A DNA stretch of 50,588 nt from a virus (lineage: Duplodnaviria > Heunggongvirae > Uroviricota > Caudoviricetes), in IMG/VR virus record IMGVR_UViG_2537561945_000005, positions 1-50,588 of that record; one strand, given 5' to 3'. Under the pieces are notes generated by a model that saw only the letters and a list, made by a program, of their open reading frames with translations, was not told the DNA's origin and did not search any database. Both the position numbers and the translations under genes were made by a program. Positions 1,369-43,155 of this stretch are shown here, in pieces; within the stretch, counting starts at the first letter, position 1, and every line of letters begins with the position of its first letter.

Positions 1369-1444
1369 GCCGATATAGCTCAGTTGGTAGAGCAGCGCAT
1401 TCGTAATGCGAAGGTCGTAGGTTCGACTCCTATTATCGGCACCA
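1369..1444 (+). tRNA. thrW: tRNA-Thr (anticodon CGU)
   Basis: 76-nt sequence GCCGATATAGCTCAGTTGG...GGCACCA with anticodon loop TTCGTAA and encoded CCA end; cloverleaf-compatible. Confidence 0.9.
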
Positions 1445-1447
1445 TTT
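1399..1447 (+). repeat. attL core: 49-bp direct repeat covering the thrW 3' half
   Basis: Identical 49-bp string ATTCGTAATGCGAAGGTCGTAGGTTCGACTCCTATTATCGGCACCATTT recurs at 43107-43155. Confidence 0.8.
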
Positions 1448-1458
1448 AAATCAATAAG

Positions 1459-2622
1459 TTACACATCATTAGTACCTTCCTTATTTTTTGACTGGGACAA
1501 ATTTGGGACCGATGGGTTCAGGATCGAGTCTATTTGCCGTGCGTGTTCGGTAAGGTGATTAGGTGCAAGGTGAGCATATCGACGAACCATTTCGATAGAC
1601 TCCCAGCCTCCCATTTCCTGTAACACTGACAACGGGACTCCGGCTTGAACCAGCCAACTTGCCCAGGTGTGTCTCAAGTCGTGAAATCTGAAATCATCAA
1701 TACCAGCCCGTCTCAGCGCCGCTTTCCAGGCTGTGTTTGCGTCATACCGCATCTTCCTTACTGTTGGCGCTTTCGTTCCGTCTGGTTTGGTACAGCTTTC
1801 CTTGTACACAAATACCCAACGGTGATGATTCCCGATTTGTTTTTTCAATACGCGACATGCAGTATCATTCAGCGCAACGCCAATTGCGCGGTTTGATTTA
1901 CTCTCTTCCGGGTTTATCCATGCCACCCGGCGCTGCATATCTATTTGTTGCCATTCAAGGTTGATGATGTTCGAGCGTCTTAAGCCTGTTGCCAGTGCAA
2001 ATTCAACAACAGACTTTAATGGCTCCGGACATTCATCAATCAGCCTTTGTGCTTCATGGGGCTCCAGCCAGCGGATCCGTTTATTCTTTGGTTGAGGCAC
2101 TTTAATAATTGGTGCCTTATCCAGCATTTTCCATTCACGCTCTGCGGCTCTTAGTAGGGCCTTTATAAATGAAAGATGCGTAGCCTTCGTTGCAACGGAC
2201 GCTGGTTTTGGCGTGTATTCTGGAACAGGTTTCCCTTTTTTTCTGCATGCTTCTGCCCTGAGTTTCCAGTTTTCCTCATGACGCCGGTTCGTCATTTTCT
2301 GCATTGCTGAATAAATTTTTGATTCAGTGATGTCTCTTAGTTGCATCCCTGCGAAATGTTGAAGCCAGAATCCGATCCGGCTTTTGTCATCGTCCAGTGA
2401 TTTCTTATGTGCTTTCTCTTCGAGCCACCTGACACACGCTTCCTCAAACGTCATATCAGGTATTTCACCAAGTTTGCTGACCCGCCATGCTTCAGCCTTT
2501 AGCTTGTCATGGAGCTCTGTCGCCTGCCTTTTGTCCTTTGTTCCAAGAGACTGTTTAAATCTTTTACCGTTCGGCAATGTGAAACTGGCGTACCATATTT
2601 CACTTCTGCGGAAGAGTGACAT
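1459..2622 (-). CDS. int: Tyrosine integrase, P22 Int type
   Basis: 387-aa protein near-identical over its length to my recollection of P22 integrase ([19 protein letters not shown]...[15 protein letters not shown]); its 3' end lies 15 bp from thrW. Confidence 0.9.
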
Positions 2623-2849
2623 TTTCTTTCCTCTGTTATGCCATCACCCGCGTTCACCTGGACAGTATGCAGCGGAGACTGAAGCGCCGCAATGCAGGCT
2701 TGCCGTGTTGTGAGGTAAGGAGATTTTGGCTTGGTTGGATCTTTACGTGTTGCCTGTAGGCGGCCTGTTCGTATCCAGTTGGTGGCGGTTGGTCTGGATA
2801 TCTTAAGAAACTGACAGGCCTCATCGAGTGTGAGGCTGTATGATTCCAT
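2499..2849 (-). CDS. xis: Excisionase, P22 Xis type
   Basis: [33 protein letters not shown] matches P22 Xis; overlaps the int 3' end as in P22. The ORF track starts 10 codons earlier at 2879. Confidence 0.75.
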
Positions 2850-3159
2850 GGTTACCTCTGCTTTTTGAACGCATGTCACGTAACTTCTTAATGTGTTCTG
2901 CCGTTTCGATCTCTTCTGCTATCCGATCTGCATCAGCTTTATTCACAGGTTCAAAGTCATGATTAAAGCGGAACATGCTGGCGATACATGTTCTGCCTTT
3001 TCGGATGTAGTGAACTTTGTTGTGGGTAGAACGCAGGATTTTGCAGGGAGTGCCGTGGTGGTCGACGTACCAGGTGTTAGGAAAAATGATTCTGAACATT
3101 TTTACACCCCAGTTGGACGATGTTGAAATTTGCTGCTTTGAGGCCATCACAGTCCCCAT
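2821..3159 (-). CDS. Hypothetical early-left-operon protein
   Basis: 112-aa ORF in the b2/ea position between xis and exo; no family recognised and start codon uncertain. Confidence 0.35.
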   Translation of the reverse strand: MGTVMASKQQISTSSNWGVKMFRIIFPNTWYVDHHGTPCKILRSTHNKVHYIRKGRTCIASMFRFNHDFEPVNKADADRIAEEIETAEHIKKLRDMRSKSRGNHGIIQPHTR

Positions 3160-3365
3160 TGTTTGTTCTTAAGTTCGATCTCCTCCTGGCAACTTGCACA
3201 AGTCCGACAACCCTGAACAGCTAGGCGTCTTCGCTCATCTATCGGATCGCCACACTCACAACAATGAGTTGCGGATACAGTCTGGTAGTTCAGACGACGC
3301 ATTTTTATTGCTGTATTGCGCTGTAATTCTTCGATTTCTGATGCTGAATCAATGATGTCTGCCAT
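3147..3365 (-). CDS. TraR/DksA-family C4 zinc-finger protein
   Basis: 72 aa with CxxC-17-CxxC (CCECGDPI...CRTCASC), typical of phage TraR/DksA-like proteins. Confidence 0.65.
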   Translation of the reverse strand: MADIIDSASEIEELQRNTAIKMRRLNYQTVSATHCCECGDPIDERRRLAVQGCRTCASCQEEIELKNKQWGL

Positions 3366-3463
3366 CTTTCATTAATCCCTGAATTGTTGGTTAATACGCT
3401 TGAGGGTAAATGCGAATAATAAAAAAGGAGCCTGTAGCTCCCTGATGATTTTGCTTTTCATGT

Positions 3464-3679
3464 TCATCGTTCCTTAAAGACGCCGTTCAACATGCCGATC
3501 GCCAGGCTTAAATGAGTCGGTGTGAATCCCATCAGCGTTACCGTTTCGCGGTGCTTCTTTAGTACGCTACGGCAAATGTCATCGACGTTTTTATCCGGAA
3601 ACTGCTGTCTGGCTTTTTTGATTTCAGAATTAGCCTGACGGGCAATACTGCGAAGGGCGTTTTCTTGCTGATGTGTCAT
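3464..3679 (-). CDS. Small early protein, lambda orf61-like
   Basis: Position and sequence resemble lambda orf61; start chosen at the internal Met (MTHQQENALR), the ORF extends to 3745. Confidence 0.45.
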   Translation of the reverse strand: MTHQQENALRSIARQANSEIKKARQQFPDKNVDDICRSVLKKHRETVTLMGFTPTHLSLAIGMLNGVFKER

Positions 3680-3755
3680 TGAACAAGTCCCATGTCGGCA
3701 AGCATAAGCACACAGAATATGAAGCCCGCTGCCAGAAAAATGCATTCAGTGGTTG

Positions 3756-3947
3756 TCATACCTGGTCTCTCTCATCTGCTTCTGCTTTCGCCACCATCAT
3801 TTCCAGCTTTTGTGAAAGGGATGCGGCTAACGTATGAAATTCTTCGTCTGTTTCTACTGGTATTGGCACAAACCTGACTCCAATTTGAGCGAGGCTATGT
3901 GCCATCTCAATGCTCGTTCTTAACTCAACAGGAGATGCTTTGTGCAT
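3756..3947 (-). CDS. Small early protein, lambda orf63-like
   Basis: 63-aa ORF in the lambda orf63 position upstream of exo. Confidence 0.5.
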   Translation of the reverse strand: MHKASPVELRTSIEMAHSLAQIGVRFVPIPVETDEEFHTLAASLSQKLEMMVAKAEADERDQV

Positions 3948-4108
3948 ACAGCTCCCCGTTTATTATTTATCTCCTCAGCCAGCCGCTGTGCTTTCAGTGG
4001 ATTTCGGGTAACAGAAAGGCCGGGAAATACCCAGCCTCGCTTTGTAACGGAGTAGACGAAAGTGATCGCACCTACCCGGATATTATCGTGAGGATGCTTC
4101 ATCGCCAT
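3920..4108 (-). CDS. Small early protein, lambda orf60a-like
   Basis: [28 protein letters not shown] matches my recollection of lambda orf60a; immediately upstream of exo. Confidence 0.55.
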
Positions 4109-4779
4109 TGTTCCCCAAATACAAAACCAATTTCAGCCAGTGCCTCGTCCATTTTTTCGATGAACTCCGGCACCATCTCGTCAAAACTCGCCATGTAATT
4201 TTCATCCCGCTCAACCACGACATAATGCAGGCCTTCACGCTTCATTCGTGGGTCATAGTTGGCAAAGTACCAGGCATCTTTTCGTGTCACCCACATGCTG
4301 TACTGCACCTGGGCCATGTAAGCCGACTTTATGGCCTCGAAACCACCGAGCCGGAACTTCATGAAATCCCGGGAGGTAAACGGGCATTTCAGCTCAAGGC
4401 CGTTGCCGTCACTGCATAAACCATCGGGAGAGCAGGCGGTGCGCATACTTTCGTCGCGATAGATGATCGGGGATTCAGTAACATTCACGCCGGAAGTAAA
4501 CTCAAACAGGGCTCTGGCGTCGTTCTCGTACTGTTTTCCCCAGGCCAGTGCTTTAGCGTTAACTTCCGGAGCCACACCGGTGCAAACCTCGGCAAGCAGG
4601 GTGTGGAAGTAGGACATTTTCATGTCAGGCCACTTCTTTCCTGAGCGGGGCTTTGCTATCACGTTGTGAACTTCTGAAGCGGTGATGACGCCGAGCCGTA
4701 ATTTGTGCCATGCATCATCCCCCTGTTCGACAGCTCTCACGTCGATCCCGGTACGCTGCAGGATAATGTCCGGTGTCAT
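4099..4779 (-). CDS. exo: Lambda exonuclease (Red-alpha)
   Basis: 226 aa, near-identical to lambda Exo ([43 protein letters not shown]...). Confidence 0.95.
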
Positions 4780-5561
4780 GCTGCCACCTTCTGCTCAGTG
4801 GCTTTCTGTTTCAGGAATCCGAGAGCTTTCACTGCTTCGGCCTGTGTCAGTTCTGACGATGCGCGAATGTCGCGGCGAAATATCTGGGAACAGAGCGGCA
4901 ATAAGTCGTCATCCCATGTTTTATCCAGGGCAATCAGCAGAGTGTTAATCTCCTGCATGGTTTCATCGTTAACCGGAGTGATGTCGCGTTCCGGCTGACG
5001 TTCTGCAGTGTATGCGGTATTTTCGACAATGCGCTCGGCTTCATCCTTGTCATAGATACCAGCAAATCCGAAGGCCAGACGGGCACACTGAATCATGGCT
5101 TTATGACGTAACATCCGTTTGGGATGCGACTGCCACGGCCCCGTGATTTCTCTGCCTTCGCGGGTTTTGAATGGTTCGCGGCGGCATTCATCCATCCACT
5201 CGGTAACGCAGATCGGATGATTGCGGTCCTTGCGGTAAATCCGGCATGTGCAGGATTCATTGTCCTGCTCAAAGTCCATACCATCAAACTGCTGGTTTTC
5301 ATTGATGATACGGGACCAGCCATCAACGCCCACCACCGGAACGATGCCGTTCTGCTTGTCAGGGAAGGCGTAAATTTCTTTCGTCCACGGATTAAGGCCG
5401 TACTGGTTGGCGACGATCAACAATGCGATGAACTGCGCATCGCTGGCATCACCTTTAAATGCCGTCTGGCGAAGAGTGGTGATCAGTTCCTGTGGGTCGA
5501 CAGAATCCATGCCGACACGTTCAGCCAGCTTCCCAGCCAGCGTTGCGAGTGCTGTACTCAT
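4776..5561 (-). CDS. bet: Lambda Bet (Red-beta) single-strand annealing protein
   Basis: 261 aa, near-identical to lambda Bet; 4-nt overlap with exo as in lambda. Confidence 0.95.
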
Positions 5562-5566
5562 CCGTT

Positions 5567-5983
5567 TTATACCTCTGAATCAATATCAACCTGGTGGTGA
5601 GCAATGGTTTCAACCATGTACCGGATGTGTTCTGCCATGCGCTCCTGAAACTCAACATCGTCATCAAACGCACGGGTAATGGCTTTTTTGCTGGCCCCGT
5701 GGCGTTGCAAATGATCGATGCATAGCGATTCAAACAGGTGCTGGGGCAGGCCTTTTTCCATGTCGTCTGCCAGTTCTGCCTCTTTCTCTTCACGGGCGAT
5801 CTGCTGGTAGTGACGCGCCCAGCTCTGAGCCTCAAGACGATCCTGAATGTAATAAGCGTTCATGGCTGAACTCCTGAAATAGCTGTGAAAATATCGCCCG
5901 CGAAATGCCAGGCTGATTAGGAAAACAGGAAAGGGGGTTAGTGAATGCTTTTGCTTGATCTCAATTTCAGCATTAATATCCAT
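5567..5983 (-). CDS. gam: Gam, RecBCD inhibitor (long form)
   Basis: 138 aa containing the lambda Gam core [38 protein letters not shown]; the short form would start at the internal Met. Confidence 0.9.
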
Positions 5984-6081
5984 TTTTTATAAGCGTCGAC
6001 GGCTTCACGAAACATCTTTTCATCGCCAATAAAAGTGGCGATAGTGAATTTAGTCTGGATAGCCATAAGTGTTTGATCCAT
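5938..6081 (-). CDS. kil: Kil host-killing protein
   Basis: 47-aa frame [47 protein letters not shown] matches lambda Kil. Confidence 0.75.
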
Positions 6082-6214
6082 TCTTTGGGACTCCTGGCTG
6101 ATTAAGTATGTCGATAAGGCGTTTCCATCCGTCACGTAATTTACGGGTGATTCGTTCAAGTAAAGATTCGGAAGGGCAGCCAGCAACAGGCCACCCTGCA
6201 ATGGCATATTGCAT
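6050..6214 (-). CDS. cIII: CIII, FtsH/HflB inhibitor
   Basis: 54 aa [54 protein letters not shown] matches lambda CIII. Confidence 0.85.
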   Translation of the reverse strand: MQYAIAGWPVAGCPSESLLERITRKLRDGWKRLIDILNQPGVPKNGSNTYGYPD

Positions 6215-6286
6215 GGTGTGCTCCTTATTTATACATAACGAAAAACGCCTCGAGTGAAGCGTTATTGGTATGCGGTAAAACCGCAC

Positions 6287-6655
6287 TCAGACGGCCTTGA
6301 TAGTCATATCATCTGAATCAAATATTCCTGATGTATCGATATCGGTAATTCTTATTCCTTCACCTCCATCCATTGGAGGCCATCCTTCCTGACCATTTCC
6401 ATCATCCCAGTCGAACTCACAAACAACACCATATGCATTTAAGTCTTTCGAAATTGCTATAAGCAGAGCATGTTGCGCCAGCATGATTAATACAGCATTT
6501 AATAAAGAGCCGTGTTTATTGAGTCGGTATTCAGAGTCTGACCAGAAATTATTAATCTGGTGAAGTTTTTCCTCTGTCATTACGTCATGGTCGATTTCAA
6601 TTTCTATTGATGCTTTCCAGTCGTAATCAATGATGTATTTTTTGATGTTTGACAT
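6287..6655 (-). CDS. ea10: Ea10-like early protein
   Basis: 122 aa, recognised as lambda Ea10 by sequence and position. Confidence 0.75.
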   Translation of the reverse strand: MSNIKKYIIDYDWKASIEIEIDHDVMTEEKLHQINNFWSDSEYRLNKHGSLLNAVLIMLAQHALLIAISKDLNAYGVVCEFDWDDGNGQEGWPPMDGGEGIRITDIDTSGIFDSDDMTIKAV

Positions 6656-6837
6656 CTGTTCATATCCTCACAGATAAAAAATCGCCCTCACATTGGAGGG
6701 CAAAGAAGATTTCCAATAATCAGAACAAGTCGGCTCCTGTTTAGTTACGAGCGACATTGCTCCGTGTATTCACTCGTTGGAATGAATACACAGTGCAGTG
6801 TTTATTCTGTTATTTATGCCAAAAATAAAGGCCACTA

Positions 6838-7038
6838 TCAGGCAGCTTTGTTGTTCTGTTTGTCAAGTTCTCTGGCAATCATTGCCGTCGTTCGTATTGC
6901 CCATTTATCGACATATTTCCCATCTTCCATTACAGGAAACATTTCTTCAGGCTTAACCATGCATTCCGATTGCAGCTTGCATCCATTACATCGCTTGAAT
7001 TGTCCACACCATTGATTTTTATCAATAGTCGTAGTCAT
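6838..7038 (-). CDS. ral: Ral restriction-alleviation protein
   Basis: 66 aa MTTTIDKNQWCGQFKRCNGCKLQSECMVKPEEMF... matches lambda Ral. Confidence 0.85.
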   Translation of the reverse strand: MTTTIDKNQWCGQFKRCNGCKLQSECMVKPEEMFPVMEDGKYVDKWAIRTTAMIARELDKQNNKAA

Positions 7039-7108
7039 ACGGATAGTCCTGGTATTGTTCCATCACATCCTGAGGATGCTCTTCGAACTCTTCAAATTCT
7101 TCTTCCAT
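7022..7108 (-). CDS. Small acidic ORF, lambda orf28-like
   Basis: 28-aa ORF MEEEFEEFEEHPQDVMEQYQDYPYDYDY overlapping the ral start, as in lambda; too short for the ORF track. Confidence 0.35.
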   Translation of the reverse strand: MEEEFEEFEEHPQDVMEQYQDYPYDYDY

Positions 7109-7251
7109 ATATCACCTTAAATAGTGGATTGCGGTAGTAAAGATTGTGCCTGTCTTTTAACCACATCAGGCTCGGTGGTTCTCATGTACCCCTACAGCGA
7201 GAAATCGGATAAACTCTATTCACCCCTACAGAGAGCAAAAGAGAAACGCCG

Positions 7252-7833
7252 ATGAACAACTCATGGTGGCAGGAACTAATGCATTTTTTCCTGCAAGGAA
7301 TGACACTTAAACAGTTGATTCATATGCTAATCATCCTGATCATATTGATTATTGTTATGCCGGTAAGCGTAAAAGAATGGATAAACCTGCATAATCCAGA
7401 AATCCTTCCTCATTACTGGATGTATTACATCCTGTTGTTTTGCGTTAGCTATGTGCTTAACGGCGTTGTTAATTCCGCTTATCACGCTGTGACTGAAAGA
7501 ATTGAGGTATCCGCTGCTCAGAAGCGAAAATCTAAAGAAGAAAAATATGTGCAAGATTTGTTTGATTCATTAACTCTTGGAGAAAGAGCGTATTTGGCAT
7601 TCGCTGTAGCCGCTAATAACCAGCTACAAACGGAAAAGGGAGCTCATGAATCAATTTCATTGCTCAAAAAAGGACTCCTCGTTCGAAGGCCTCCTGCTGT
7701 TGGATATCCTGATACCGACCGTTTTGTTATTCCTGAAAGCTATAGACATGAGTGCTACATTCGGTTTGCCGGGAAGGCAGACAGCCTTATGGATGAACTT
7801 ATCGCTCAGGATAAGCATGGCAAAAACAAGTAA
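7252..7833 (+). CDS. sieB: Superinfection exclusion protein B
   Basis: 193-aa membrane protein on the opposite strand between ral and N, matching lambda SieB in sequence and position. Confidence 0.8.
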   Translation: MNNSWWQELMHFFLQGMTLKQLIHMLIILIILIIVMPVSVKEWINLHNPEILPHYWMYYILLFCVSYVLNGVVNSAYHAVTERIEVSAAQKRKSKEEKYVQDLFDSLTLGERAYLAFAVAANNQLQTEKGAHESISLLKKGLLVRRPPAVGYPDTDRFVIPESYRHECYIRFAGKADSLMDELIAQDKHGKNK

Positions 7834-7849
7834 TTAGCAAATGAATTTA

Positions 7850-8158
7850 TCATCTCGCCGTCAGTTGTTTTGATTTCCGGTAGCCTGCCGCGTAAATAGC
7901 TACGTTTGGCAGGCAAACACTTCCACTGCATTCATCTACTTTCTTGCAGCGAAGGCTTCCGAGTGATATTGCTTTTTCAGAAAGGCTTAACCGCTTTCTC
8001 GGGTCTTCCTGAACAGGTTCCTCACTGTCTGTGCCGAAGATCGAATCGATGATGTTGCAGATGGAATCACGCTCGATGGCCAGCTTTCTGCGCCGCTCAT
8101 GACGGCGAGTTTTGGCATTTCCTGCAAATGTTGATTTTCCGTACACGATTACCGTCAT
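7850..8158 (-). CDS. N: Antiterminator N, P22 gene 24 type
   Basis: MTVIVYGKSTFAGNAKTRRHERRRKLAIERD arginine-rich N-terminus matches P22 gp24 rather than lambda N; start at the internal Met, ORF extends to 8242. Confidence 0.8.
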   Translation of the reverse strand: MTVIVYGKSTFAGNAKTRRHERRRKLAIERDSICNIIDSIFGTDSEEPVQEDPRKRLSLSEKAISLGSLRCKKVDECSGSVCLPNVAIYAAGYRKSKQLTAR

Positions 8159-8276
8159 GATGTTTTCCTCATGTGAAATGGCTTTGGTGGTGATGCGCCA
8201 GATGCTGATCTTCTGGTTGCTGTCGTTACTGCTGCAATTCACATCACCCCAAACCCATCTCGTTTGGTATCTGTTC

Positions 8277-8310
8277 GCGCTTTGTCAGCGCATCATCGAA
8301 GTTAAAGAGC
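8277..8310 (-). promoter_or_regulatory. nutL (boxB 8277-8291, boxA ~8300-8310)
   Basis: Minus-strand reading gives GCTCTTTAAC (boxA-like) followed by GCGCTGACAAAGCGC, the P22-type boxB hairpin, just upstream of N. Confidence 0.7.
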
Positions 8311-8566
8311 CTGCCAATCTGTTCCGTTTGGCTGCCAGCGTCCTGCTGATGGTGATGATAATGAACCAATAGTTCGATATTATCAAGAACTATAAGTACG
8401 AATTGTTTGTGGTTCATTAACTTAATGGGATATGTTTTTGATATGTAAAGGAGTTTATTTTTGTAAAGATTGAAGATTGGTCAGTAGGAGAGAAAGAATT
8501 GTTTGCTGGCGTGTTAGTTCGTGGGTTAGCACATGTGCGGATGTTAAATAAGGTAGACGATCGTGA

Positions 8567-8596
8567 GGAAAAGAAAAACCGGCGCTGAGGCCGGGT
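8567..8596 (-). terminator. Rho-independent terminator ending the cI / rex-position transcript
   Basis: Minus-strand hairpin CCGGC-CTCAGC-GCCGG followed by a T-rich run, immediately downstream of the 8601-9500 ORF. Confidence 0.6.
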
Positions 8597-8600
8597 ATAA

Positions 8601-9500
8601 TTATTTGATTATTTCTTTTATAAAGACTTCTTTCGGTTGGTATTTTTTATCTGATGATTTGAGCTGGTACGTTATTGTTATATCAGCACGTACAGCAAAT
8701 TTACCTGCAAAATCTGATGGGTTTACGTTGGGGCCAAGAACCATATTTACTCTTCGATCTATTAATCCAGGGATAACAGCAGCCCAACCTTTCTCTGGAT
8801 TGTCGAGGTCTAATGCACGGATTTCAACATCAACATCAAAATGATCCTGAGTATATGACTCTGGTGTGAAGACAACTTCAGTTGGGGCTTTTTTAATGGT
8901 TTCAGCGGGAATGGTCACTGTACCACCCCCTGTACCTATGACCATCGTAGATCCTTCGTCTGCCCTAGCTGGGGCAAGCGTCTTAATGGAACTTTTGGCA
9001 AGAGTCTTCTTATTGGTTACCGTGCTTTCTATGATTGCTTGAAGACGGTCAGGTGAAATATTAGCCTCACCGGCACCAATATTGATGATTGTATTGTTAT
9101 TTGCTTCAAAGTGGGAGGTGTTGCTTGGAGCCATAGCCTTAGTTGCTAGAACTAAGCCATATCCAACCAGACCAATAACAACAGCACCAACGAGAGCGTT
9201 TCTCATTTTCCCATTTCCGATCTTTGCATGAGCGCCAGCAAGAAACTTGTCCATTTCTTCTTGGCTACCAAAGAGGAGTTTAATAACAATATCTTCATAA
9301 AGGCTTCCTGCTTCTAATCGCGCAACATGCACCGATATATCAAGGATATTAGCCCCTGTCAGTTCCTGCAAAACACCTTCTGATTGTTTTGCGATGGCCT
9401 CCCACCCTTGAAGGGAGGTAATCACATCTTTGATGCTTACAGGTTCTTTAGTTGAATAATATATGTTTTCGGTAAAGGTTAAAGATAATTCTTGGGACAT
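8601..9500 (-). CDS. Membrane protein in the rex position (candidate superinfection-exclusion or abortive-infection factor)
   Basis: 299-aa ORF directly downstream of cI on the same strand, where lambda carries rexAB; one central hydrophobic helix (ALVGAVVIGLVGYGLVLATKAMA); no family recognised. Confidence 0.6.
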   Translation of the reverse strand: MSQELSLTFTENIYYSTKEPVSIKDVITSLQGWEAIAKQSEGVLQELTGANILDISVHVARLEAGSLYEDIVIKLLFGSQEEMDKFLAGAHAKIGNGKMRNALVGAVVIGLVGYGLVLATKAMAPSNTSHFEANNNTIINIGAGEANISPDRLQAIIESTVTNKKTLAKSSIKTLAPARADEGSTMVIGTGGGTVTIPAETIKKAPTEVVFTPESYTQDHFDVDVEIRALDLDNPEKGWAAVIPGLIDRRVNMVLGPNVNPSDFAGKFAVRADITITYQLKSSDKKYQPKEVFIKEIIK

Positions 9501-9629
9501 CCGAGCCCTCGCTGTTTCTTTCGATTTGCTGTGTTAAGCTAATATTTTAATATCCATGTTTCTGTTTGCTTGCAGTGTGTTTCTCACCACCATCCAAACG
9601 TACTGGTTACTAGCTATGTGATGATGAAG

Positions 9630-10337: not shown

Positions 10338-10415
10338 GAGTACGATACTAAAGCACTTGCAAAAACTTTCAGTTCAACCATAATGCGTACTGAAAGTACG
10401 AAAAAGGACATTCCT
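10338..10415. promoter_or_regulatory. Divergent operator/promoter region (oR, pRM, pR)
   Basis: 78-bp cI-cro intergenic region containing inverted half-sites ACTTTCAGT / ACTGAAAGT. Confidence 0.5.
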
Positions 10416-10643: not shown

Positions 10644-10650
10644 GTAACAC

Positions 10651-10685
10651 CGCTCTTTATCAATCTGCACCGCCGACAACGCGGT
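10651..10685 (+). promoter_or_regulatory. nutR (boxA CGCTCTTTATCA, boxB hairpin)
   Basis: boxA consensus at 10651-10662 and a 5-bp stem hairpin ACCGC-CGACAAC-GCGGT at 10669-10685, between cro and cII. Confidence 0.6.
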
Positions 10686-10749
10686 AACTAATTAAGAACT
10701 CATCGAAAGATGCGTATTAGTGATTATTTACCTATGGAAATAGTAAGAA

Positions 10750-11071: not shown

Positions 11072-11081
11072 AGGAGTCATT

Positions 11082-11981
11082 ATGACAAATACAGCAAAAA
11101 TACTCAACTTCGGCAGAGGTAACTTTGCCGGACAGGAGCGTAATGTGGCAGATCTCGATGATGGTTACGCCAGACTATCAAATATGCTGCTTGAGGCTTA
11201 TTCAGGCGCAGATCTGACCAAGCGACAGTTTAAAGTGCTGCTTGCCATTCTGCGTAAAACCTATGGGTGGAATAAACCAATGGACAGAATCACCGATTCT
11301 CAACTTAGCGAGATTACAAAGTTACCTGTCAAACGGTGCAATGAAGCCAAGTTAGAACTCGTCAGAATGAATATTATCAAGCAGCAAGGCGGCATGTTTG
11401 GACCAAATAAAAACATCTCAGAATGGTGTATCCCTCAAAACGAGGGAAAATCCCCTAAAACGAGGGATAAAACATCCCTCAAATTGGGGGATTGCTATCC
11501 CTCAAAACAGGGGGACACAAAAGACACTATTACAAAAGAAAAAAGAAAAGATTATTCGTCCGAGAATTCTGGCGAATCCTCTGACCAGCCAGAAAACGAT
11601 CTTTCTGTGGTTAAACCGGATGCTGCAATTCAGAGCGGCAGCAAGTGGGGGACAGCAGAAGACCTGACCGCCGCAGAGTGGATGTTTGACATGGTGAAGA
11701 CTATCGCACCATCAGCCAGAAAACCGAATTTTGCTGGGTGGGCTAACGATATCCGCCTGATGCGTGAACGTGACGGACGTAACCACCGCGACATGTGTGT
11801 ACTGTTCCGCTGGGCATGCCAGGACAACTTCTGGTCCGGTAACGTGCTGAGTCCGGCTAAACTCCGCGACAAGTGGACCCAGCTCGAAATCAACCGTAAC
11901 AAGCAACAGGCTGGCGTGACAGCCAGAAAACCAAAACTCGACCTGACAAACACTGACTGGATTTACGGGGTGGATTTATGA
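11082..11981 (+). CDS. O: Replication initiator O
   Basis: 299 aa, near-identical to lambda O. Confidence 0.95.
   Translation: MTNTAKILNFGRGNFAGQERNVADLDDGYARLSNMLLEAYSGADLTKRQFKVLLAILRKTYGWNKPMDRITDSQLSEITKLPVKRCNEAKLELVRMNIIKQQGGMFGPNKNISEWCIPQNEGKSPKTRDKTSLKLGDCYPSKQGDTKDTITKEKRKDYSSENSGESSDQPENDLSVVKPDAAIQSGSKWGTAEDLTAAEWMFDMVKTIAPSARKPNFAGWANDIRLMRERDGRNHRDMCVLFRWACQDNFWSGNVLSPAKLRDKWTQLEINRNKQQAGVTARKPKLDLTNTDWIYGVDL
11431..11560 (+). repeat. ori-lambda: four iterons plus AT-rich segment
   Basis: Four 17-19 bp iterons (TCCCTCAAAACGAGGGA-like) at 11431, 11451, 11474 and 11497, followed by an A/T-rich stretch inside O. Confidence 0.85.
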
Positions 11982-15885: not shown

Positions 15886-16983
15886 TTAGAACTGGTAAAC
15901 CAGACCTACAGCAACGATGTCATCAGTGCTTACACCGAGTGCTTTAGTGAAGTCATTTTTGTCAAGCAGGTTGATTTTGTAATCAACGAAAGTAGACATA
16001 TTTTTGTTGAAGTAATAGGTTGCACCTACATCAACATATTTGACTAAGTCCTGATCGCCCCATACTCCAAGATCCTTACCTTTAGATTGCAGGTAAGCAA
16101 CGGACGGACGCAGACCGAAATCGAACTGATATTGTGCAACAGCTTCGAAGTTTTGGGCTTTATTAGCAACGAAGTGATCAGCAAATACAGTCATATTCTG
16201 GGTTTCAGAATAGGTAGTGGCCAGGTAAATGTTGTTAGCGTCATATTTCAGACCTGCGGCCCAAACTTCTGCATTTTTACCGGAAGCAAATACTTCAGGA
16301 AGAACTTTCCCTGCATTAACTTGAGTGTCGGTACGATCAGATTTCGCATAAGTTGCACCGATACCGAATCCTTCGTATTCATAGGTAGCAGAGAAACCGA
16401 AGCCATCACCGTTACCTTCAGTGTAGTTATCGAAATCGCTACGATCGTTTTTGCCTTGGTACTGAGCAGCAAAGTTCAGACCATCAACCAGACCAAAGAA
16501 GTCGTTGTTACGATAGGTTGCAACACCAGTTGCACGTTGAGTCATGAACACGTCGGTTTGAGTCCAAGTGTCACCACCGAATTCTGGCAGGACGTCAGTC
16601 CACGCACCGATGTCGTATGCTACACCGTAGTTACGGCCGTAATCGATGGAGCCGTAGTCACCGAATTTCAGGCCAGCGAAGGCAAGACGGGTTTTATCTT
16701 TGGAGGAACCTTGAGATTCAGCGCGGTTGCCTTTGAATTCATATTCCCACTGACCGAAACCAGTCAGTTGATCGTTGATTTGGGTTTCACCTTTGAAGCC
16801 AAGACGGGCATAAGTAGTATCACCATCATCTGCATCATTAGAGGAGAAGTAGTGCTTAGCATTAACTTTCCCGTACAGATCCAGCTTGTTACTGTCTTTA
16901 TTATAAATTTCAGCTGCCTGAGCAGACATCGCCATCAGTACTGATGCAGCTACAGCAGAAATTGCCACTGTTAATTTTTTCAT
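15886..16983 (-). CDS. nmpC: Outer-membrane general porin, NmpC/Lc (OmpC family), intact
   Basis: 366 aa with signal peptide [23 protein letters not shown] and C-terminal ...VGLVYQF; OmpC/OmpF-type beta-barrel; same location as nmpC in DLP12. Confidence 0.85.
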
Positions 16984-17189
16984 CGTGAGCCCTTTTTTTG
17001 AACTATTATTAAAAAATGATGTCACTGCGCGATAAATATTCATCTAATCAATGTGATTATTTCAAGATGTAAGTTTTGGTTTCTCGTTTGATTTGTGAAG
17101 TAGATCTCTATTTTTATCTGAACTTTTTTCTATCGAATCCTATTCATGGCTCTTTGCTGAATAAAAATAAATCTATTAGCCAATTTATA

Positions 17190-18757: not shown

Positions 18758-19051
18758 TTATTGTGAGCAATACACACGCGCTTCCAGCGGAGTATAAATG
18801 CCTAAAGTAATAAAACCGAGCAATCCATTTACGAATGTTTGCTGGGTTTCTGTTTTAACAACATTTTCTGCGCCGCCACAAATTTTGGCTGCATCAACAG
18901 TTTTCTCCTGTCCAATTCCCGAAACGAAGAAATGATGGGTGATGGTTTCCTTTGGTGTTACTGCTGTCGGTTTGTTTCCAACAGTAAACGTCTGTTGAGC
19001 ACATCCTGTAATAAGCATTGCCAGAGCGGCAGAAAACAACATTTTTTTCAT
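18758..19051 (-). CDS. bor: Bor lipoprotein (serum-resistance, lysogenic conversion)
   Basis: 97 aa MKKMLFSAALAMLITGCAQQTFTVGNK... matches lambda Bor; lipobox LITGC. Confidence 0.85.
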   Translation of the reverse strand: MKKMLFSAALAMLITGCAQQTFTVGNKPTAVTPKETITHHFFVSGIGQEKTVDAAKICGGAENVVKTETQQTFVNGLLGFITLGIYTPLEARVYCSQ

Positions 19052-32510: not shown

Positions 32511-32521
32511 TCGGAGTGTAT

Positions 32522-35474: not shown

Positions 35475-35899
35475 TGGAACTGTGGCTGACGGTGAACGGT
35501 AAACGCACCTGCGCCAGCGCACCGCTGGATCCGCTGACCCGCGCCGTGGTGATTTCCCTGTTCACCTGGCGGCGGGCGGAGCCTGATGACAACGCCGACG
35601 TCCCGATGGGATGGTGGGGGGATACCTGGCCTGCGGTACAGAATGACCGTTACGGCTCCCGACTGTGGCTGCTTCAGCGCAGCAAACTGACCAATCAGCT
35701 GGTGCAGACGGTAAGGGGGTATATCCGCGAATGCCTGCAATGGATGATTGATGACGGCGTGGTGTCCCGTATTGATCTGGATATCCGCCGCACCGGGATT
35801 AATGAGCTGGGTAACAGTATCACTCTCTGGCGTCGTGACGGACCGGTAATGATTTCTTTTGATGATCTGTGGAGTGCGATAACGCATGGCGGACAGTGA
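35471..35899 (+). CDS. Baseplate protein (Mu gp46 / gp25-like)
   Basis: 142 aa, translationally coupled within the baseplate block. Confidence 0.68.
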   Translation: MMELWLTVNGKRTCASAPLDPLTRAVVISLFTWRRAEPDDNADVPMGWWGDTWPAVQNDRYGSRLWLLQRSKLTNQLVQTVRGYIRECLQWMIDDGVVSRIDLDIRRTGINELGNSITLWRRDGPVMISFDDLWSAITHGGQ

Positions 35900-36944
35900 A
35901 TTTCAGCGCCCGACGCTGGCAGAAAATATCAGTATGCTCCGTAACGATTTATTCGCCAGGCTGGACGTCAGCGACACGCTCCGGCGCATGGATGAAGACG
36001 TGCGGGCAAAGGTGTATGCGGCGGCGCTGCATACGGTTTACGGGTACATCGATTATCTGGCAATGAATATGCTGCCTGACCTGTGCGATGAGTCCTGGCT
36101 GGCGCGACATGCTGCGATGAAACGGTGTCCGCGCAAGGGGGCCACGGCTGCCAGCGGGTATATGCGCTGGGAAGGTGTCAGCGATGGCCTGAAGGTGACT
36201 GCCGGGAGCGTGATTCAGCGCGATGACCTGGTTCAGTACACGGCAACTGCCGATGCAATCAGCTCCGGTGGTGTCCTGCGTGTGCCGATCACTTGCTCAA
36301 CTACAGGCGCGGTCGGTAACGCTGACGACGGTACGGCATTAATCCTGGTCACGCCGGTGAATGGTCTGCCGTCTTCCGGTGTTGCAGATACCCTGACTGG
36401 CGGATTCGATACTGAAGATCTGGAAACGTGGCGCGCCCGCGTCATTGAGCGGTATTACTGGACGCCGCAGGGCGGGGCTGACGGGGACTATGTCGTCTGG
36501 GCTAAAGAAGTGCCCGGCATTACCCGCGCATGGACATACCGTCACTGGATGGGAACGGGAACTGTCGGTGTGATGATTGCCAGCAGTGACCTGATTAATC
36601 CCATTCCGGAAGAATCAACGGAAACGGCGGCAAGACAACATATCGGGCCACTGGCCCCGGTGGCAGGCTCTGATTTGTATGTGTTCAGGCCGGTGGCACA
36701 TACGGTGGATTTTCATATCCGCGTGACGCCGGACACACCGGAAATACGGGCTGCCATCACCGCCGAGTTGCGTTCGTTCCTGCTGCGTGATGGTTATCCG
36801 CAGGGAGAACTGAAGGTGTCACGTATCAGTGAGGCGATTTCCGGTGCGAACGGGGAATACAGCCATCAGTTGCTTGCACCGGCGGACAATATCTCCATTG
36901 CAAAAAATGAACTGGCGGTTCTGGGGGCGATTTCATGGACGTGA
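35886..36944 (+). CDS. Baseplate J-like protein (Mu gp47)
   Basis: 352 aa in the expected order. Confidence 0.78.
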
Positions 36945-37519
36945 CAAACGATGATTACATCCGTCTGTTGTCGGCACTGCTGCCGCCCGGTCCGGCGTGG
37001 TCAGCCAGCGATCCGGCGATTGCTGGTGCGGCACCGTCATTAACCCGTGTTCATCAGCGTGCGGATGCCCTGATGCGGGAGCTGGATCCGCGCACCACCA
37101 CTGAACTGATAAACCGTTGGGAGCGTCTGTGCGGTCTGCCGGATGAATGTATTCCCGCAGGGACACAGACCCTTCGCCAGCGTCAGCAACGGCTGGATGC
37201 GAAGGTTAATCTGGCGGGCGGCATCAATGAGGATTTTTACCTTGCACAGCTTGCTGCCCTGGGCAGACCAGACGCCACTATCACGCAATACGATAAAAGC
37301 ACGTTCACCTGCTCATCGGCCTGTACTGACGCGGTGAATGTGCCGGAATGGCGGTATTACTGGCAGGTCAACATGCCAGCCGCCACCAACACCACCTGGA
37401 TGACATGTGGCGACCCCTGTGATTCCGCACTGCGTATCTGGGGGGACACCGTTGTCGAATGTGTGCTTAACAAACTCTGCCCGTCGCATACCTACGTAAT
37501 TTTTAAATATCCGGAGTAA
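36935..37519 (+). CDS. Baseplate/tail protein (Mu gp48-like)
   Basis: 194 aa immediately upstream of the tail fibre gene. Confidence 0.62.
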
Positions 37520-37522
37520 TCC

Positions 37523-38437
37523 ATGCATCGTATAGACACAAAAACCGCGCAGAAGGATAAGTTCGGCGCGGGTAAGAACGGTTTTACCCGTGGTAACCCC
37601 CAGACCGGCACGCCAGCCACCGATCTGGATGATGACTACTTTGACATGTTGCAGGAAGAACTCTGCAGCGTGGTGGAGGCATCCGGTGCCAGTCTGGAGA
37701 AGGCGCGGCACGACCAGCTGCTTACCGCGCTTCGTGCGCTGCTGTTAAGCCGCAAGAATCCGTTTGGCGATATCAAATCGGATGGCACTGTGCAAACGGC
37801 TCTCGAAAACCTTGGTTTGGTGGATGATTCCGGTGTAGTAGGCCGCTTGCTTAATACTCAAGTGATTACCTCATCTGGTACTTACACCCCAACACCGGGT
37901 ACCCGGAAAATTAAGGTAATTCTTACCGGGGGAGGTGGCGGTGGTAGTTCTGTCATCGCCACATCATTTTCTCAGACGGCGTTTGGAGGTGGAGGTGGCT
38001 CTGCCGCAACCTGCATCGGTATTTTTGACCTTGAAGATATCAGTGATTTTTCTGTCGTTATCGGAGCAGGTGGAACAGCTGATAATCCAGGTGGGACATC
38101 AACATTTAATGGAATGTCAGCCGGTCGCGGTGGTAGTGGATCCGGCGTAAACACTCCGTCAATTGGTTCTGGTGGTGCAGATGGAACAGCTACTGGCGGG
38201 CTAATCAATATCCATGGTGGCTATGGTAGTGACGGTCAGCAGGGAAGTTATTACTCATTTGGTAATGGTGCGGCTTCGTTCTGGGGGGGAGGTGGTCGTG
38301 CTGGTTCTGCTAATGGTGTTGCAGCCAAAGCATATGGTGCTGGCGGAGGTGCTGCTTATGACACCGCTTTTTCAGGAGTGCTAAAAGCCGGTGGAACAGG
38401 AGCGCCTGGGATCTGCGTGATTGAGGAGTTTGCATAA
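37523..38437 (+). CDS. Tail fibre protein with Gly-rich C-terminal domain
   Basis: 304 aa; N-terminus [47 protein letters not shown] typical of fibre N-termini; Gly-rich distal half. Confidence 0.8.
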
Positions 38438-38850
38438 TGAATTACGCATTAATTAAAAATAATGTCGTCGTAAATACGGTTGTCTGTAATTCAGATAACG
38501 ATGCAAAAAAATTATTTCCGGATTACACCGTCATTAATATTACTGGCATTGCCGCAGGAATAAACTGGACATATGACGGTACTAATTTCACGGCGCCAGT
38601 TATTGAAAAATCAGTTGCCGAATTAGCCGCGGAAAATATGGCAATATCAAACTCTGAGTATGCTCGCGCAACAACTCAAATCGATTTGTTGAACGATCAG
38701 ATCCAGGATGCTGACTACACTGACACAACTGAGAACGCAGTGAAGTCGGCACTTACAGAGTGGACTGAGTACCGTAAATCATTACGTGCATATATCAGGG
38801 CTGGTGACTGGACACAGTCACTGCCTATTCAGCCAGATTCGGTCAGTTAA
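38437..38850 (+). CDS. Tail fibre assembly chaperone
   Basis: 137 aa directly after the fibre gene with ATAATG coupling. Confidence 0.72.
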   Translation: MNYALIKNNVVVNTVVCNSDNDAKKLFPDYTVINITGIAAGINWTYDGTNFTAPVIEKSVAELAAENMAISNSEYARATTQIDLLNDQIQDADYTDTTENAVKSALTEWTEYRKSLRAYIRAGDWTQSLPIQPDSVS

Positions 38851-38926
38851 CGTTTAGCAAGATGTCGGAAGCCGTAGCACGTCGTATGCAAGATCGTGCT
38901 GCGGTTTATGCTTATCACTTAAAGAC

Positions 38927-39796
<870 letters not shown>

Positions 39797-39927
39797 CTAA
39801 GCCTTTGAATTTACAAGTACAAAAAAGATACTTTTCCTCATAATGTGAATTAATTTTATGTTTCGTTTGATGATTGGACCGGTCTCGAAAACCGGAGTAG
39901 GGGCAACTCTACCGGGGGGGCAAATCC

Positions 39928-41266
39928 CATAAGCGCTAACTTAAGGGTTGTGGTATTACGCCTGATATGATTTAACGTGCCGATGAATTACTCTCACGAT
40001 AACTGGTCAGCAATTCTGGCCCATATTGGTAAGCCCGAAGAACTGGATACTTCGGCACGTAATGCCGGGGCTCTAACCCGCCGCCGCGAAATTCGTGATG
40101 CTGCAACTCTGCTACGTCTGGGGCTGGCTTACGGCCCCGGGGGGATGTCATTACGTGAAGTCACTGCATGGGCTCAGCTCCATGACGTTGCAACATTATC
40201 TGACGTGGCTCTCCTGAAGCGGCTGCGGAATGCCGCCGACTGGTTTGGCATACTTGCCGCACAAACACTTGCTGTACGCGCCGCAGTTACGGGTTGTACA
40301 AGCGGAAAGAGATTGCGTCTTGTCGATGGAACAGCAATCAGTGCGCCCGGGGGCGGCAGCGCTGAATGGCGACTACATATGGGATATGATCCTCATACCT
40401 GTCAGTTCACTGATTTTGAGCTAACCGACAGCAGAGACGCTGAACGGCTGGACCGATTTGCGCAAACGGCAGACGAGATACGCATTGCTGACCGGGGATT
40501 CGGTTCGCGTCCCGAATGTATCCGCTCACTTGCTTTTGGAGAAGCTGATTATATCGTCCGGGTTCACTGGCGAGGATTGCGCTGGTTAACTGCAGAAGGA
40601 ATGCGCTTTGACATGATGGGTTTTCTGCGCGGGCTGGATTGCGGTAAGAACGGTGAAACCACTGTAATGATAGGCAATTCAGGTAATAAAAAAGCCGGAG
40701 CTCCCTTTCCGGCACGTCTCATTGCCGTATCACTTCCTCCCGAAAAAGCATTAATCAGTAAAACCCGACTGCTCAGCGAGAATCGTCGAAAAGGACGAGT
40801 AGTTCAGGCGGAAACGCTGGAAGCAGCGGGCCATGTGCTATTGCTAACATCATTACCGGAAGATGAATATTCAGCAGAGCAAGTGGCTGATTGTTACCGT
40901 CTGCGATGGCAAATTGAACTGGCTTTTAAGCGGCTCAAAAGTTTGCTGCACCTGGATGCTTTGCGTGCAAAGGAACCTGAACTCGCGAAAGCGTGGATAT
41001 TTGCTAATCTACTCGCCGCATTTTTAATTGACGACATAATCCAGCCATCGCTGGATTTCCCCCCCAGAAGTGCCGGATCCGAAAAGAAGAACTAACTCGT
41101 TGTGGAGAATAACAAAAATGGTCATCTGGAGCTTACAGGTGGCCATTCGTGGGACAGTATCCCTGACAGCCTACAAAACGCAATTGAAGAACGCGAGGCA
41201 TCGTCTTAACGAGGCACCGAGGCGTCGCATTCTTCAGATGGTTCAACCCTTAAGTTAGCGCTTATG
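39928..41266 (+). mobile_element. IS186 (IS4 family), complete, with 10-bp target-site duplication
   Basis: 1339-bp element with terminal inverted repeats CATAAGCGCTAACTTAAGGGTTG and direct repeats GGGCAAATCC at 39918-39927 and 41267-41276; target has the GGGG-N6-CCCC pattern. Confidence 0.9.
39983..41095 (+). CDS. insL: IS186 transposase InsL
   Basis: 370 aa from MNYSHDNWSAILAHIGK..., matching E. coli IS186 InsL. Confidence 0.9.
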   Translation: MNYSHDNWSAILAHIGKPEELDTSARNAGALTRRREIRDAATLLRLGLAYGPGGMSLREVTAWAQLHDVATLSDVALLKRLRNAADWFGILAAQTLAVRAAVTGCTSGKRLRLVDGTAISAPGGGSAEWRLHMGYDPHTCQFTDFELTDSRDAERLDRFAQTADEIRIADRGFGSRPECIRSLAFGEADYIVRVHWRGLRWLTAEGMRFDMMGFLRGLDCGKNGETTVMIGNSGNKKAGAPFPARLIAVSLPPEKALISKTRLLSENRRKGRVVQAETLEAAGHVLLLTSLPEDEYSAEQVADCYRLRWQIELAFKRLKSLLHLDALRAKEPELAKAWIFANLLAAFLIDDIIQPSLDFPPRSAGSEKKN

Positions 41267-41873
41267 GGGCAAATCCCCCTCTCTCCGCCACTTTATCAAT
41301 GACTTATCTCCCGACTTCCCGCCTTGCTTTTCCTAAACAGAACAATCGTAGAATATTCTTGAAGGGTTAGATCGTCACTGTTTTCTGTTCGATACTGTGA
41401 CATTCAGCACTTGATTCGCTATGGATCTGACAGGAAGGTTTCGAGCGAAAATCTGCAGTTATTCAGTCGTTTTCTTATCGGTCACCATTATTCTTTTAGA
41501 CATTGATCCTACAAAGCTGCCGCAAAGTTGGTGGTGGGAACTGAAGTTGCGTAGAGAAGGGGTCAATACCCGGAGGCAAACATGGGCTGGCAAAAGTGTA
41601 GCGGTATTAGGCGCAGCTATTTAGCCTAGTTATGTTTTATGAAAACTTGATATCATATAAGTGTCTTACTTATTGGCTGTAAATAAGGTTTTCTAAGGAA
41701 TTGTTTCTTTAGTATCATTTGTAACTGTAACGGAATTTATAATCCTTTGCTTTATTTTTACGGTATTTTTTATCACACCCTATTTTTTATGTGGTTTTTT
41801 ATACTGAAGTTTGGCAAAGTGAACTTTATATGCATATACTTCATCCTGGTTTCAGTTAAATTGGGTGGATGAT

Positions 41874-42617
41874 ATGGCAACTACATGTTCAGTTATATTG
41901 ATTTTGGAGTCCTTTGATGTTTATTTCGGAAAAGAGAGTGTGTTTCTGGATAGAGGTTTATCTGTACTTGTCGACTCTAGCTATAGAGATTTTTTCCTGA
42001 CATATCCTGAAAGAGTGATAGTGGCGGATTTTGGCGCTGAGTTTATTAGTCGCTATTTGAAAGCTAATAACTTAAGGGATATTTCTGATTGTAGGGAATA
42101 TCCATCTTATTTAAAAATAAACTTTGCTGACTTCAGTTTAATTAAAGGATTAATTAGTTGGGCTAATCACTGTGCTGAATATATAGAAATTTTTGATGAG
42201 TCTATTGCTTTTACATGTCTCTCTGCATTTTCTTCTGAAAAACAATTTGGAGTATTTCTGTTTGGATGTTTGAAAAGCACAGGGGCTAAAGTTAAAACGA
42301 TTATTCATACGGATTTATCTGCACCATGGCGTCTTAAGGATATATCATCAAGATTATATCTCAGCGAAAGTTTACTAAAGAGGAAATTGAAAGAAGAGGG
42401 GGTATCATTCAGTAAGATCATACTTGATGAGAGGATGCAAATGGCTGAATATTTACTCAGCACTCGTTGTTATCCTATTAGTAAAGTAGCTAAGGTCTGT
42501 GGTTATGCCAGTGTCTCATACTTTACTTATGTATTTAGACGTTATTTTGGTGTTTCTCCAAGTCAATACCCTCAGAGGAGTTCAGAAAGTAAAATTCTTA
42601 CTCACCAGGGAATCTGA
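41874..42617 (+). CDS. AraC-family transcriptional regulator (AppY/EnvY-like)
   Basis: 247 aa with C-terminal AraC-type HTH (ISKVAKVCGYASVSYFTYVFRRYFGVSPSQY); AT-rich gene; first ATG with GGTGG upstream, GTG alternative at 41865. Confidence 0.75.
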   Translation: MATTCSVILILESFDVYFGKESVFLDRGLSVLVDSSYRDFFLTYPERVIVADFGAEFISRYLKANNLRDISDCREYPSYLKINFADFSLIKGLISWANHCAEYIEIFDESIAFTCLSAFSSEKQFGVFLFGCLKSTGAKVKTIIHTDLSAPWRLKDISSRLYLSESLLKRKLKEEGVSFSKIILDERMQMAEYLLSTRCYPISKVAKVCGYASVSYFTYVFRRYFGVSPSQYPQRSSESKILTHQGI

Positions 42618-42658
42618 TCATTGTTCTTGCCCCCTTATTTCCAGACAGGGGGTGTATC

Positions 42659-42886
42659 TTAAGTTAACGTTACCCGCTGACGTCGATATTCTCGCGGAGA
42701 GCGATAACCCAACGCACTGTGCGGATGGTTTTCATTGTAATGTTCGATCGCCACTGCAAGATTATGCAATGCCGTTCTTACATTCGGTTTCGGCATGAAC
42801 GCGATGTAGTCTTCCTTCATCGTTTTCACGAACCTTTCTGCCATTCCATTACTCTGAGGACTGCTGATTACCCATGAGGAGTACAA
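42659..42886 (-). pseudogene. Transposase remnant (DDE/rve integrase-core C-terminal fragment)
   Basis: ~70-aa fragment ...[19 protein letters not shown]...[14 protein letters not shown] typical of an rve-type transposase C-terminus; no upstream catalytic region. Confidence 0.55.
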
Positions 42887-43106
42887 TTAAACGGGTTAAT
42901 CAGTTTCTCCATTTGAAAGAAAAAAGACTTCTGTACTGTTTGATATCACCGCTATTTTCTTATTTTCTGTGCAGGTCGTAGTGGGACAAAACTGAGACAC
43001 ATAAGGCCTCACAATGGCTTGCAAGGCTTTACATGTTTTGATGTGGTGGGACGTGTGAGCGCAGTGTTGATGGGGTAATACTTTGAATTAGAAGCGGATT
43101 CTTATG

Positions 43107-43155
43107 ATTCGTAATGCGAAGGTCGTAGGTTCGACTCCTATTATCGGCACCATTT
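43107..43155 (+). repeat. attR of the prophage / attL of the downstream island: partial thrW 3' copy
   Basis: Exact 49-bp copy of 1399-1447; no tRNA 5' half, so not a functional tRNA. Confidence 0.8.

Follow-up and report, generated by a model that had tools for sequence, protein, structure and literature searches.

How two integrative elements come to occupy a single tRNA gene, and where one ends and the other begins, is the question raised by the thrW locus on the 50,588-nucleotide stretch of DNA analysed here (IMG/VR record IMGVR_UViG_2537561945_000005, hereafter the window). An initial annotation had described a prophage and an island with a P4-type integrase arranged in tandem at thrW and sharing a 49-bp attachment (att) core. 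The window is 100% identical to the minus strand of the chromosome of E. coli BE311 (NZ_CP097213.1), an isolate from piglet faeces from China. Strains F41 and K99S carry the identical sequence, and the repeat and the junctions agree in these three independent assemblies. Genome comparisons refer to a set of 5426 complete E. coli genomes, and positions beyond 50588 are called window-equivalent, which means that the window numbering is carried on along NZ_CP097213.1. The locus is very probably a two-member tandem array in which an SfII-like phage joined a resident P4-integrase island at thrW, and independent excision of the two elements would be expected.

The only tRNA gene in the window is a tRNA-Thr(CGU) gene detected by ARAGORN directly after proA, and its sequence is identical to that of thrW of strain K-12. 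As the initial annotation had it, this intact gene lies on the proA side and is followed by the oppositely oriented phage integrase gene (Table 1). Two exact copies of the 49-mer ATTCGTAATGCGAAGGTCGTAGGTTCGACTCCTATTATCGGCACCATTT, and no more, are present in the window; both are on the plus strand, and no mismatch separates them. None of 100 dinucleotide-preserving shuffles of the window contained a match, even with three mismatches allowed. The repeat comprises nucleotides 31-76 of thrW plus three downstream nucleotides (TTT) and grows to 52 nucleotides if one mismatch is accepted. The proposal that an exact 49-bp repeat of the 3' part of thrW brackets the prophage was thus borne out. We assign the two copies as the attL and attR cores of an SfII-type mosaic prophage, because the rejoined prophage ends are colinear with the attP of Shigella phage SfII: joining 42982-43155 to 1448-1490 in silico gave a sequence that matched the SfII attP region at 205 of 210 positions without gaps. 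The integrase (Int) of the prophage is a tyrosine recombinase; in tblastn searches it was 100% identical to its SfII counterpart and 89.9% identical to that of P22, which justifies the earlier label 'P22-type', and the excisionase (Xis) is 96% identical to SfII Xis. The locus shows the features of the P22/SfII lineage: int with adjacent xis lies by attL, and attP holds a stretch of thrW that begins in the anticodon loop and reaches the gene's 3' end, with the core starting at nucleotide 31.

The other end of the island was sought downstream of the window, where a third att copy had been anticipated. A gapless search of 45 kb of downstream sequence for a third full 49-mer returned copy 2 only, and a gapless downstream search for the 19-mer that forms the end of the repeat, with up to three mismatches, likewise returned copy 2 only. 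A third copy, TCCTATTATCG-CACCATT, was found with gapped blastn-short at window-equivalent 83589-83606 (record positions 3691117-3691100) and confirmed as an exact 18-mer. It equals the last 19 nucleotides of the 49-bp copies minus one G, and the gapless searches missed it because of this 1-nt deletion. It is located between the CbtA gene and yagP' and is followed by the native thrW flank (AAAATCAAAGAGTTACCCCATATTTAAATACACC...). In E. coli BL21, where the site is empty (proB-proA-thrW-yagP'-paoD), the native flank stands directly after thrW with a few allelic base differences in the first ~15 nucleotides; in K-12 the same flank comes after the thrW fragment that closes CP4-6 on the right; and in sampled empty-site genomes from the genome-wide search the matches begin exactly where the native flank starts. 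Both the anticipated third copy and the island end therefore exist, 33 kb past the end of the window, although the copy is of 18 nucleotides and not of 49 bp. A side observation concerns the phage arm at the intact gene: the homology of attP runs past the end of the tRNA, and TTTAAATCAA..AGTTAC in the phage P' arm (window 1445-1465) resembles the native downstream flank of thrW. The identical block relative to an empty BL21-type site would consequently be ~56 bp rather than 49 bp.

Since the distal copy has only 18 nucleotides and carries the 1-nt deletion, the island's own core is predicted to be the last 19 nucleotides of the right copy and not the whole 49 bp. The idea that the two elements share a 49-bp att core thus needs qualification: one physical 49-bp copy is indeed shared, but the repeat that belongs to the island is confined to its last 19 nucleotides. 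Two unrelated integrases apparently make use of different subsites in one tRNA gene, the phage enzyme of an anticodon-centred core of 49 bp and the island enzyme of a T-stem/3'-end core of 19 nt, and a single physical repeat is therefore the right end of the prophage as well as the left end of the island. This is of practical value for annotation, since the true boundaries give the prophage a length of 41.66 kb and the defence island one of 40.45 kb. Recognizing them avoids calling an 82-kb 'prophage' and accounts for the failure of the search for a third 49-bp copy.

The integrase encoded right after the right copy was confirmed to be of P4 type. It aligns with P4 Int over the full length (44% identity, E 5e-124) and possesses the three expected Pfam domains, Arm-DNA-bind_3, Phage_int_M and Phage_integrase, which represent an N-terminal arm-binding domain of DUF4102 type, a SAM-like domain in the middle and the catalytic domain of a tyrosine recombinase. 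Its alignment with the prophage Int is weak and covers the catalytic domain only (E 0.006), and the same holds for its match to IntF of K-12 (E 2e-5). Cross-reactivity of the two integrases at this locus was considered and is unlikely in view of that weak catalytic-domain alignment. P4-type domains, 19/18-nt repeats of the tRNA 3' end at both ends and an integrase gene at the tRNA-proximal end together identify the element as a P4-integrase island, with a length of ~40.45 kb from the core in copy 2 to the distal copy. In the 84.7 kb examined, the 8-mer GGGGGCAT has six occurrences, five of them at the two island ends; a second pair, at window-equivalent 83508 and 83520, lies beside the third att copy with the same 12-bp spacing as the pair near the integrase gene. 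We regard these pairs as putative arm-type sites of the P4-type integrase. Another pair, of ACCGAAATCAA, is present at 43174 and 43247, between the core and the island int gene.

Comparison with strains lacking one or both elements, as the initial annotation had suggested, yielded each absence state with the site precisely restored. All four states of the site were found: empty (BL21), island only (198 genomes), phage only (strain N73, in which the phage attR is directly joined to the native flank) and tandem (49 genomes, with different prophages). The island-only state was recognized by the phage-deleted junction, i.e. 900-1447 joined to 43156-43705 without interruption, with 100% identity over 1098 bp in the 25 matches listed, and the tandem state by the succession of phage P arm, core and island arm. 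The island is thus present at thrW in at least 247 genomes (198 + 49). Its far-end junction was found in 167 genomes and is 100% identical, deletion included, in the island-only strain M217. The thrW gene is followed by this SfII-type int in 1215 of the 5426 genomes, and the particular prophage of the window occurs in only three. Prophage occupancy of sites that carry the island (49/247, 20%) is about the same as overall (22%). The neighbours also vary: in strain WCHEC005784 a lambda-like siphovirus prophage precedes the identical island integrase (WP_000772656.1), and in strain 6409 the phage arm precedes a different variant of the P4-type integrase. For each of the two excision reactions, both products exist as natural sequences.

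The events that would lead to this arrangement can be ordered as follows. The ~40-kb island would first have entered the T-stem/3'-end subsite of thrW, leaving the 19-nt core at the end of the tRNA gene and the 18-nt copy beside the original flank (yagP'/paoD). Later, Int of the SfII-like phage would have recombined attP, which carries 49 bp identical to thrW nucleotides 31-76 plus three more, with the anticodon-loop-centred site of the still intact gene. This insertion would regenerate thrW at attL and displace both a 49-bp piece of thrW (attR) and the island by 41.7 kb in the downstream direction. That the prophage entered an island-bearing thrW is the most likely course because this prophage is found in only three genomes. 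The earlier suggestion that it was inserted between thrW and a pre-existing island is in agreement with the 198 phage-deleted junctions, the rarity of the prophage and the different prophage at the same place in WCHEC005784. It also passes the test set by the initial annotation, which would have counted the lack of a further att copy or island end downstream as a refutation. The most parsimonious history would be a widespread resident island followed by recent, repeated phage insertions into the intact thrW. As for mobility, solo excision is plausible for each element, as each carries an integrase, an excisionase-type gene and an att pair of its own. The phage Int/Xis pair would excise the prophage between the 49-bp copies; excision of the island, between 43136-43154 and the distal 18-nt copy, would fall to the island Int with an AlpA-like protein. 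Use of the distal copy by the phage Int would be barred, because that copy is without the anticodon region. Joint excision, which is canonical for neither integrase, would require an attB-like x attR reaction of the island Int or else homologous recombination.

Several points weigh against this history or limit it. A phage that came first, followed by an island entering copy 2, would give the identical sequence, so that the order of events is argued from parsimony, and the genomes counted in that argument are not phylogenetically independent. It is nevertheless unlikely that an SfII-like phage lysogenised an empty thrW and that the island then entered the 3' 19 nucleotides of the phage attR copy. 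Copy 2 does hold a complete island core, it would be a usable target given that the native flank follows attR in the phage-only strain N73, and, according to the TIGER paper (PMC7192596), either of the restored cores may take up a second element. Against this stand the frequencies of the two elements (3 of 5426 genomes for the prophage, at least 247 with the island at thrW), the other prophages that precede the same integrase gene in other strains, and the far-end junction shared with M217 down to the 1-nt deletion; this identity points to the island insertion as the older, shared event. The reverse order is thus less parsimonious than the arrival of the island before the phage. The activity of either integrase is inferred from sequence. 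The island may be immobile in view of the 1-nt core deletion shared with M217 and of its IS1 and ISEc12 insertions (IS, insertion sequence), and the prophage may be defective in view of IS421 and gene fragments; the IS insertions, like the deletion in the core, speak for some decay of the elements. Whether the array is a fossil, with one element or both decayed and fixed in place and the repeats left as scars without a present role in recombination, is a matter of activity and not of origin, and this view is compatible with a resident island joined later by a phage. We hold it to be possible but rather doubtful. The deletion in the distal core, the IS1, ISEc12 and IS1-fragment insertions annotated in the island, and IS421 together with the partial genes Rz1, DUF1364 and stfP in the prophage all speak for it. 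On the other hand, the phage Int and Xis are 100% and 96% identical to those of an isolated phage, the 49-bp cores are still perfectly identical, and the island retains an AlpA-type gene and an intact integrase open reading frame (ORF) that is identical across strains.

It is extremely improbable that the ~82 kb between copy 1 and the distal copy move as one composite unit. Accretion and joint mobilisation of tandem elements has been documented, for instance in phage-ICE tandems (ICE, integrative and conjugative element) in Streptococcus (PMC13651849), and the 19-nt island core is also contained in copy 1. Each part is found alone in many genomes, however, and the integrases are unrelated. The distal 18-nt copy would be of no use to the phage Int without the anticodon region, and copy 1, as a site for the island Int, is without an adjacent island arm bearing GGGGGCAT motifs. 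Moreover, the annotation of the island includes no gene for a relaxase or for conjugation, and the SfII genome (41.5 kb) is only about half as long as an 82-kb unit. A related proposal, that the array acts as a functional unit, is highly unlikely as well. The island Int would then recombine thrW (copy 1) with the distal 18-nt copy and so release an ~82-kb circle of phage plus island, or induction of the SfII-like prophage would mobilise the defence cargo, and aberrant excision or in-situ packaging may carry the methyltransferase/ATPase module and BREX-1 (both described below) into new hosts. If this were true, phage occupancy of thrW would be a vehicle for spreading the defence island.

Table 1. 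Features of the thrW locus in the window. Positions refer to the 50,588-nucleotide stretch.
Feature	Position	Strand	Basis or remark
proA	1-1254	+	Conserved chromosomal flank upstream of thrW; ORF list, RefSeq annotation of NZ_CP097213.1
Intact thrW, tRNA-Thr(CGU)	1369-1444	+	ARAGORN; putative regenerated target gene, 3' part forms the predicted phage attL
att copy 1, predicted prophage attL 49-bp core	1399-1447	+	Exact repeat; inside intact thrW
Mosaic prophage, 41,659 bp	1448-43106		Early region lambda-like; head and tail genes of SfII/SfV-type myovirus
Prophage integrase, SfII/P22 type	1459-2622	-	tblastn; Pfam Phage_integrase
Prophage excisionase	2499-2849	-	PHROG 2907 excisionase, E 1.8e-52; ORF overlaps int
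P arm of predicted prophage attR	42982-43106	+	Matches SfII attP left arm
att copy 2, predicted prophage attR 49-bp core	43107-43155	+	Exact repeat; displaced thrW 3' fragment; last 19 nt double as putative island attL core
Predicted island attL core TCCTATTATCGGCACCATT	43136-43154	+	thrW nt 60-76 + TT; repeated as 18-nt copy at far island end
Island, proximal 7.4 kb	43156-50588		Rest runs 33 kb past window end
Candidate arm-type sites of island integrase	43267-43314		GGGGGCAT at 43267 and 43279 (+), 43307 (-); putative function
Island integrase, P4 type	43316-44524	+	GTG-extended start at 43277; ~160 bp downstream of att copy 2

The prophage between the copies is a mosaic. Lambdoid phages match its early region with 97.7% identity across 60% of the query, and the genes annotated there include N, a cI-type repressor, cro/cII, O, P, nin and Q, as well as genes for lysis. 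The late region is 97.7% identical to SfII, SfI, SfIV and SfV, with 97-98% identity for the packaging, head and contractile-tail genes. An 18-nt repeat (TATCCCTCAAAACGAGGG-like) is present in three copies at 11429-11513, inside the replication O-like gene (11082-11981); these are typical lambdoid ori iterons and ordinary for such a phage. An OmpC/NmpC-like porin gene (15886-17043, minus strand) is located between Q and the lysis genes, and a gene for an iss/bor-type serum-survival lipoprotein follows the lysis cassette (~18758-19050). Just after the tail-fibre genes, the product of a moron at 38927-39751 (minus strand) matches the single-gene anti-phage defence system PD-T4-3 (PADLOC PDLC04031, E 2.7e-140); its RefSeq name is only 'LEM-3-like GIY-YIG domain-containing protein'. 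On the attP side, a moron locus comprises IS421 (39977-41095), an AraC-family gene (41865-42617) and an IS integrase-core fragment. The AraC-family gene has a low G+C content (~38-41%) and is nearest to YdeO/GadX, with scores below curated cut-offs. This locus (39977-42868) looks like a site of cargo exchange, as the gtr genes of SfII are found at the same place. We considered whether the prophage is a serotype-converting Sf phage and rejected this, since a gtrA-gtrB-gtr(type) cluster by attP is lacking and the AraC-family gene and IS remnants are found there instead.

The first operon of the island (44766-48739, plus strand) has a G+C content of ~33% and consists of three genes. Their products are an N6 methyltransferase resembling those of type II (PADLOC MTase_II, E 8e-237), an AAA ATPase similar to ORC/CDC6, for which PADLOC gave faint hits only, and a 373-aa protein for which no Pfam, NCBIfam or PADLOC match was obtained. 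The operon is retained in WCHEC005784 and may be an uncharacterised restriction- or defence-type module. According to the annotation of the record, the island continues with IS1, BREX-1, an AlpA-family gene (supported by a Pfam hit), Ag43, antirestriction, DUF932 and RadC-like genes and a YeeU/CbtA toxin-antitoxin pair, beyond which lie a yagP-like LysR pseudogene and paoD. The BREX-1 system is complete (brxA, brxB, brxC, pglX, pglZ, brxL; NZ_CP097213.1 3710021-3723395) and located ~1-14 kb past the end of the window; two zinc-ribbon genes and an inovirus-type Gp2 gene stand beside it.

Among known phages, the prophage is closest to the SfII group. The serotype-converting phages SfII, SfI, SfIV and SfV of Shigella flexneri and the Salmonella phage P22 use the same integration site downstream of proA (PMC3306764), and the similarity extends from Int, Xis and attP, as given above, to the head and tail genes (~97.5%). 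The differences are that the early region of the window prophage is lambda-like and not SfII-like, that it carries the YdeO/GadX-like AraC-family regulator and IS remnants where SfII has gtrA, gtrB and gtrII next to attP, and that it also has the PD-T4-3 defence gene. The island, in turn, resembles satellite phage P4 in the family of its integrase and in the presence of a small AlpA/Vis-type helix-turn-helix gene, and the P4 attP core, annotated as 20 bp at the tRNA 3' end, is similar in size to the 19/18-nt repeat. The island is much larger, however (40 kb versus 11.6 kb), and none of its 37 annotated features is named as P4 alpha primase, sid, psu, delta, epsilon, cI or cos, a test made at the level of annotation. 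Classification as a P4-like satellite was therefore dropped on grounds of size and the absence of annotated P4 helper-exploitation genes; the element is a genomic island with a P4-type integrase.

The cryptic prophage CP4-6 of K-12 occupies the same slot, between proA-thrW and yagP/paoD, and shares with the island a module of GTPase, DUF932, antirestriction, RadC and YeeU/CbtA-type genes at 49-76% amino-acid identity. This module (ykfA to ykfI) has the opposite orientation relative to thrW in CP4-6 (K-12 NC_000913.3 262871-297260), the remaining cargo differs, and BREX is missing from CP4-6. The gene of its integrase, IntF, lies at the distal end, where it borders a complete thrW fragment of ~51 bp, and IntF is unrelated to the island Int. 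An identification of the island with CP4-6 was given up because of the unrelated IntF, the low identity and inversion of the module, and the ~51-bp fragment at the CP4-6 end. At least three unrelated integrase lineages thus target thrW in E. coli, those of SfII/P22 type, IntF type and P4 type.

Tandem insertion at thrW has precedents. When a tandem was produced in the laboratory, SfI as the newcomer inserted into the attL of SfX, the resident phage (Sun et al. 2011, PMC3306764), and E. coli O157:H7 harbors tandem prophages at thrW (PMC9997748). The likeness lies in a newcomer placed between the regenerated thrW and the resident, with an att copy at each boundary, and insertion of the phage in front of the resident island would match the entry of SfI into the attL of SfX. 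In both earlier cases the two members are phages with the same integrase type and core, whereas the resident here is a P4-integrase island that uses another and shorter subsite of the same tRNA gene. More generally, thrW is among the most used tRNA gene (tDNA) integration sites in E. coli (PMC7545054), and tandems of phages and ICEs have been studied functionally (PMC13651849). Islander (PMC4383910) and TIGER (PMC7192596) catalogue tandem tDNA arrays and separate anticodon-centred from T-stem subsites; Islander reported 125 tandems among 3919 islands in 2014 (PMC4383910). The features by which Islander recognizes a tandem are found at this locus: an intact tDNA at one end, an integrase and a co-oriented tDNA fragment for each member, and genomes in which each member is absent and the site precisely restored. 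The tandem array at thrW was thus correctly observed and is nothing new in kind, because thrW is a known hotspot for which such arrays have been published. There is no difference of principle from the arrays in Islander and TIGER, and the locus in the window is an instance of that catalogued class.

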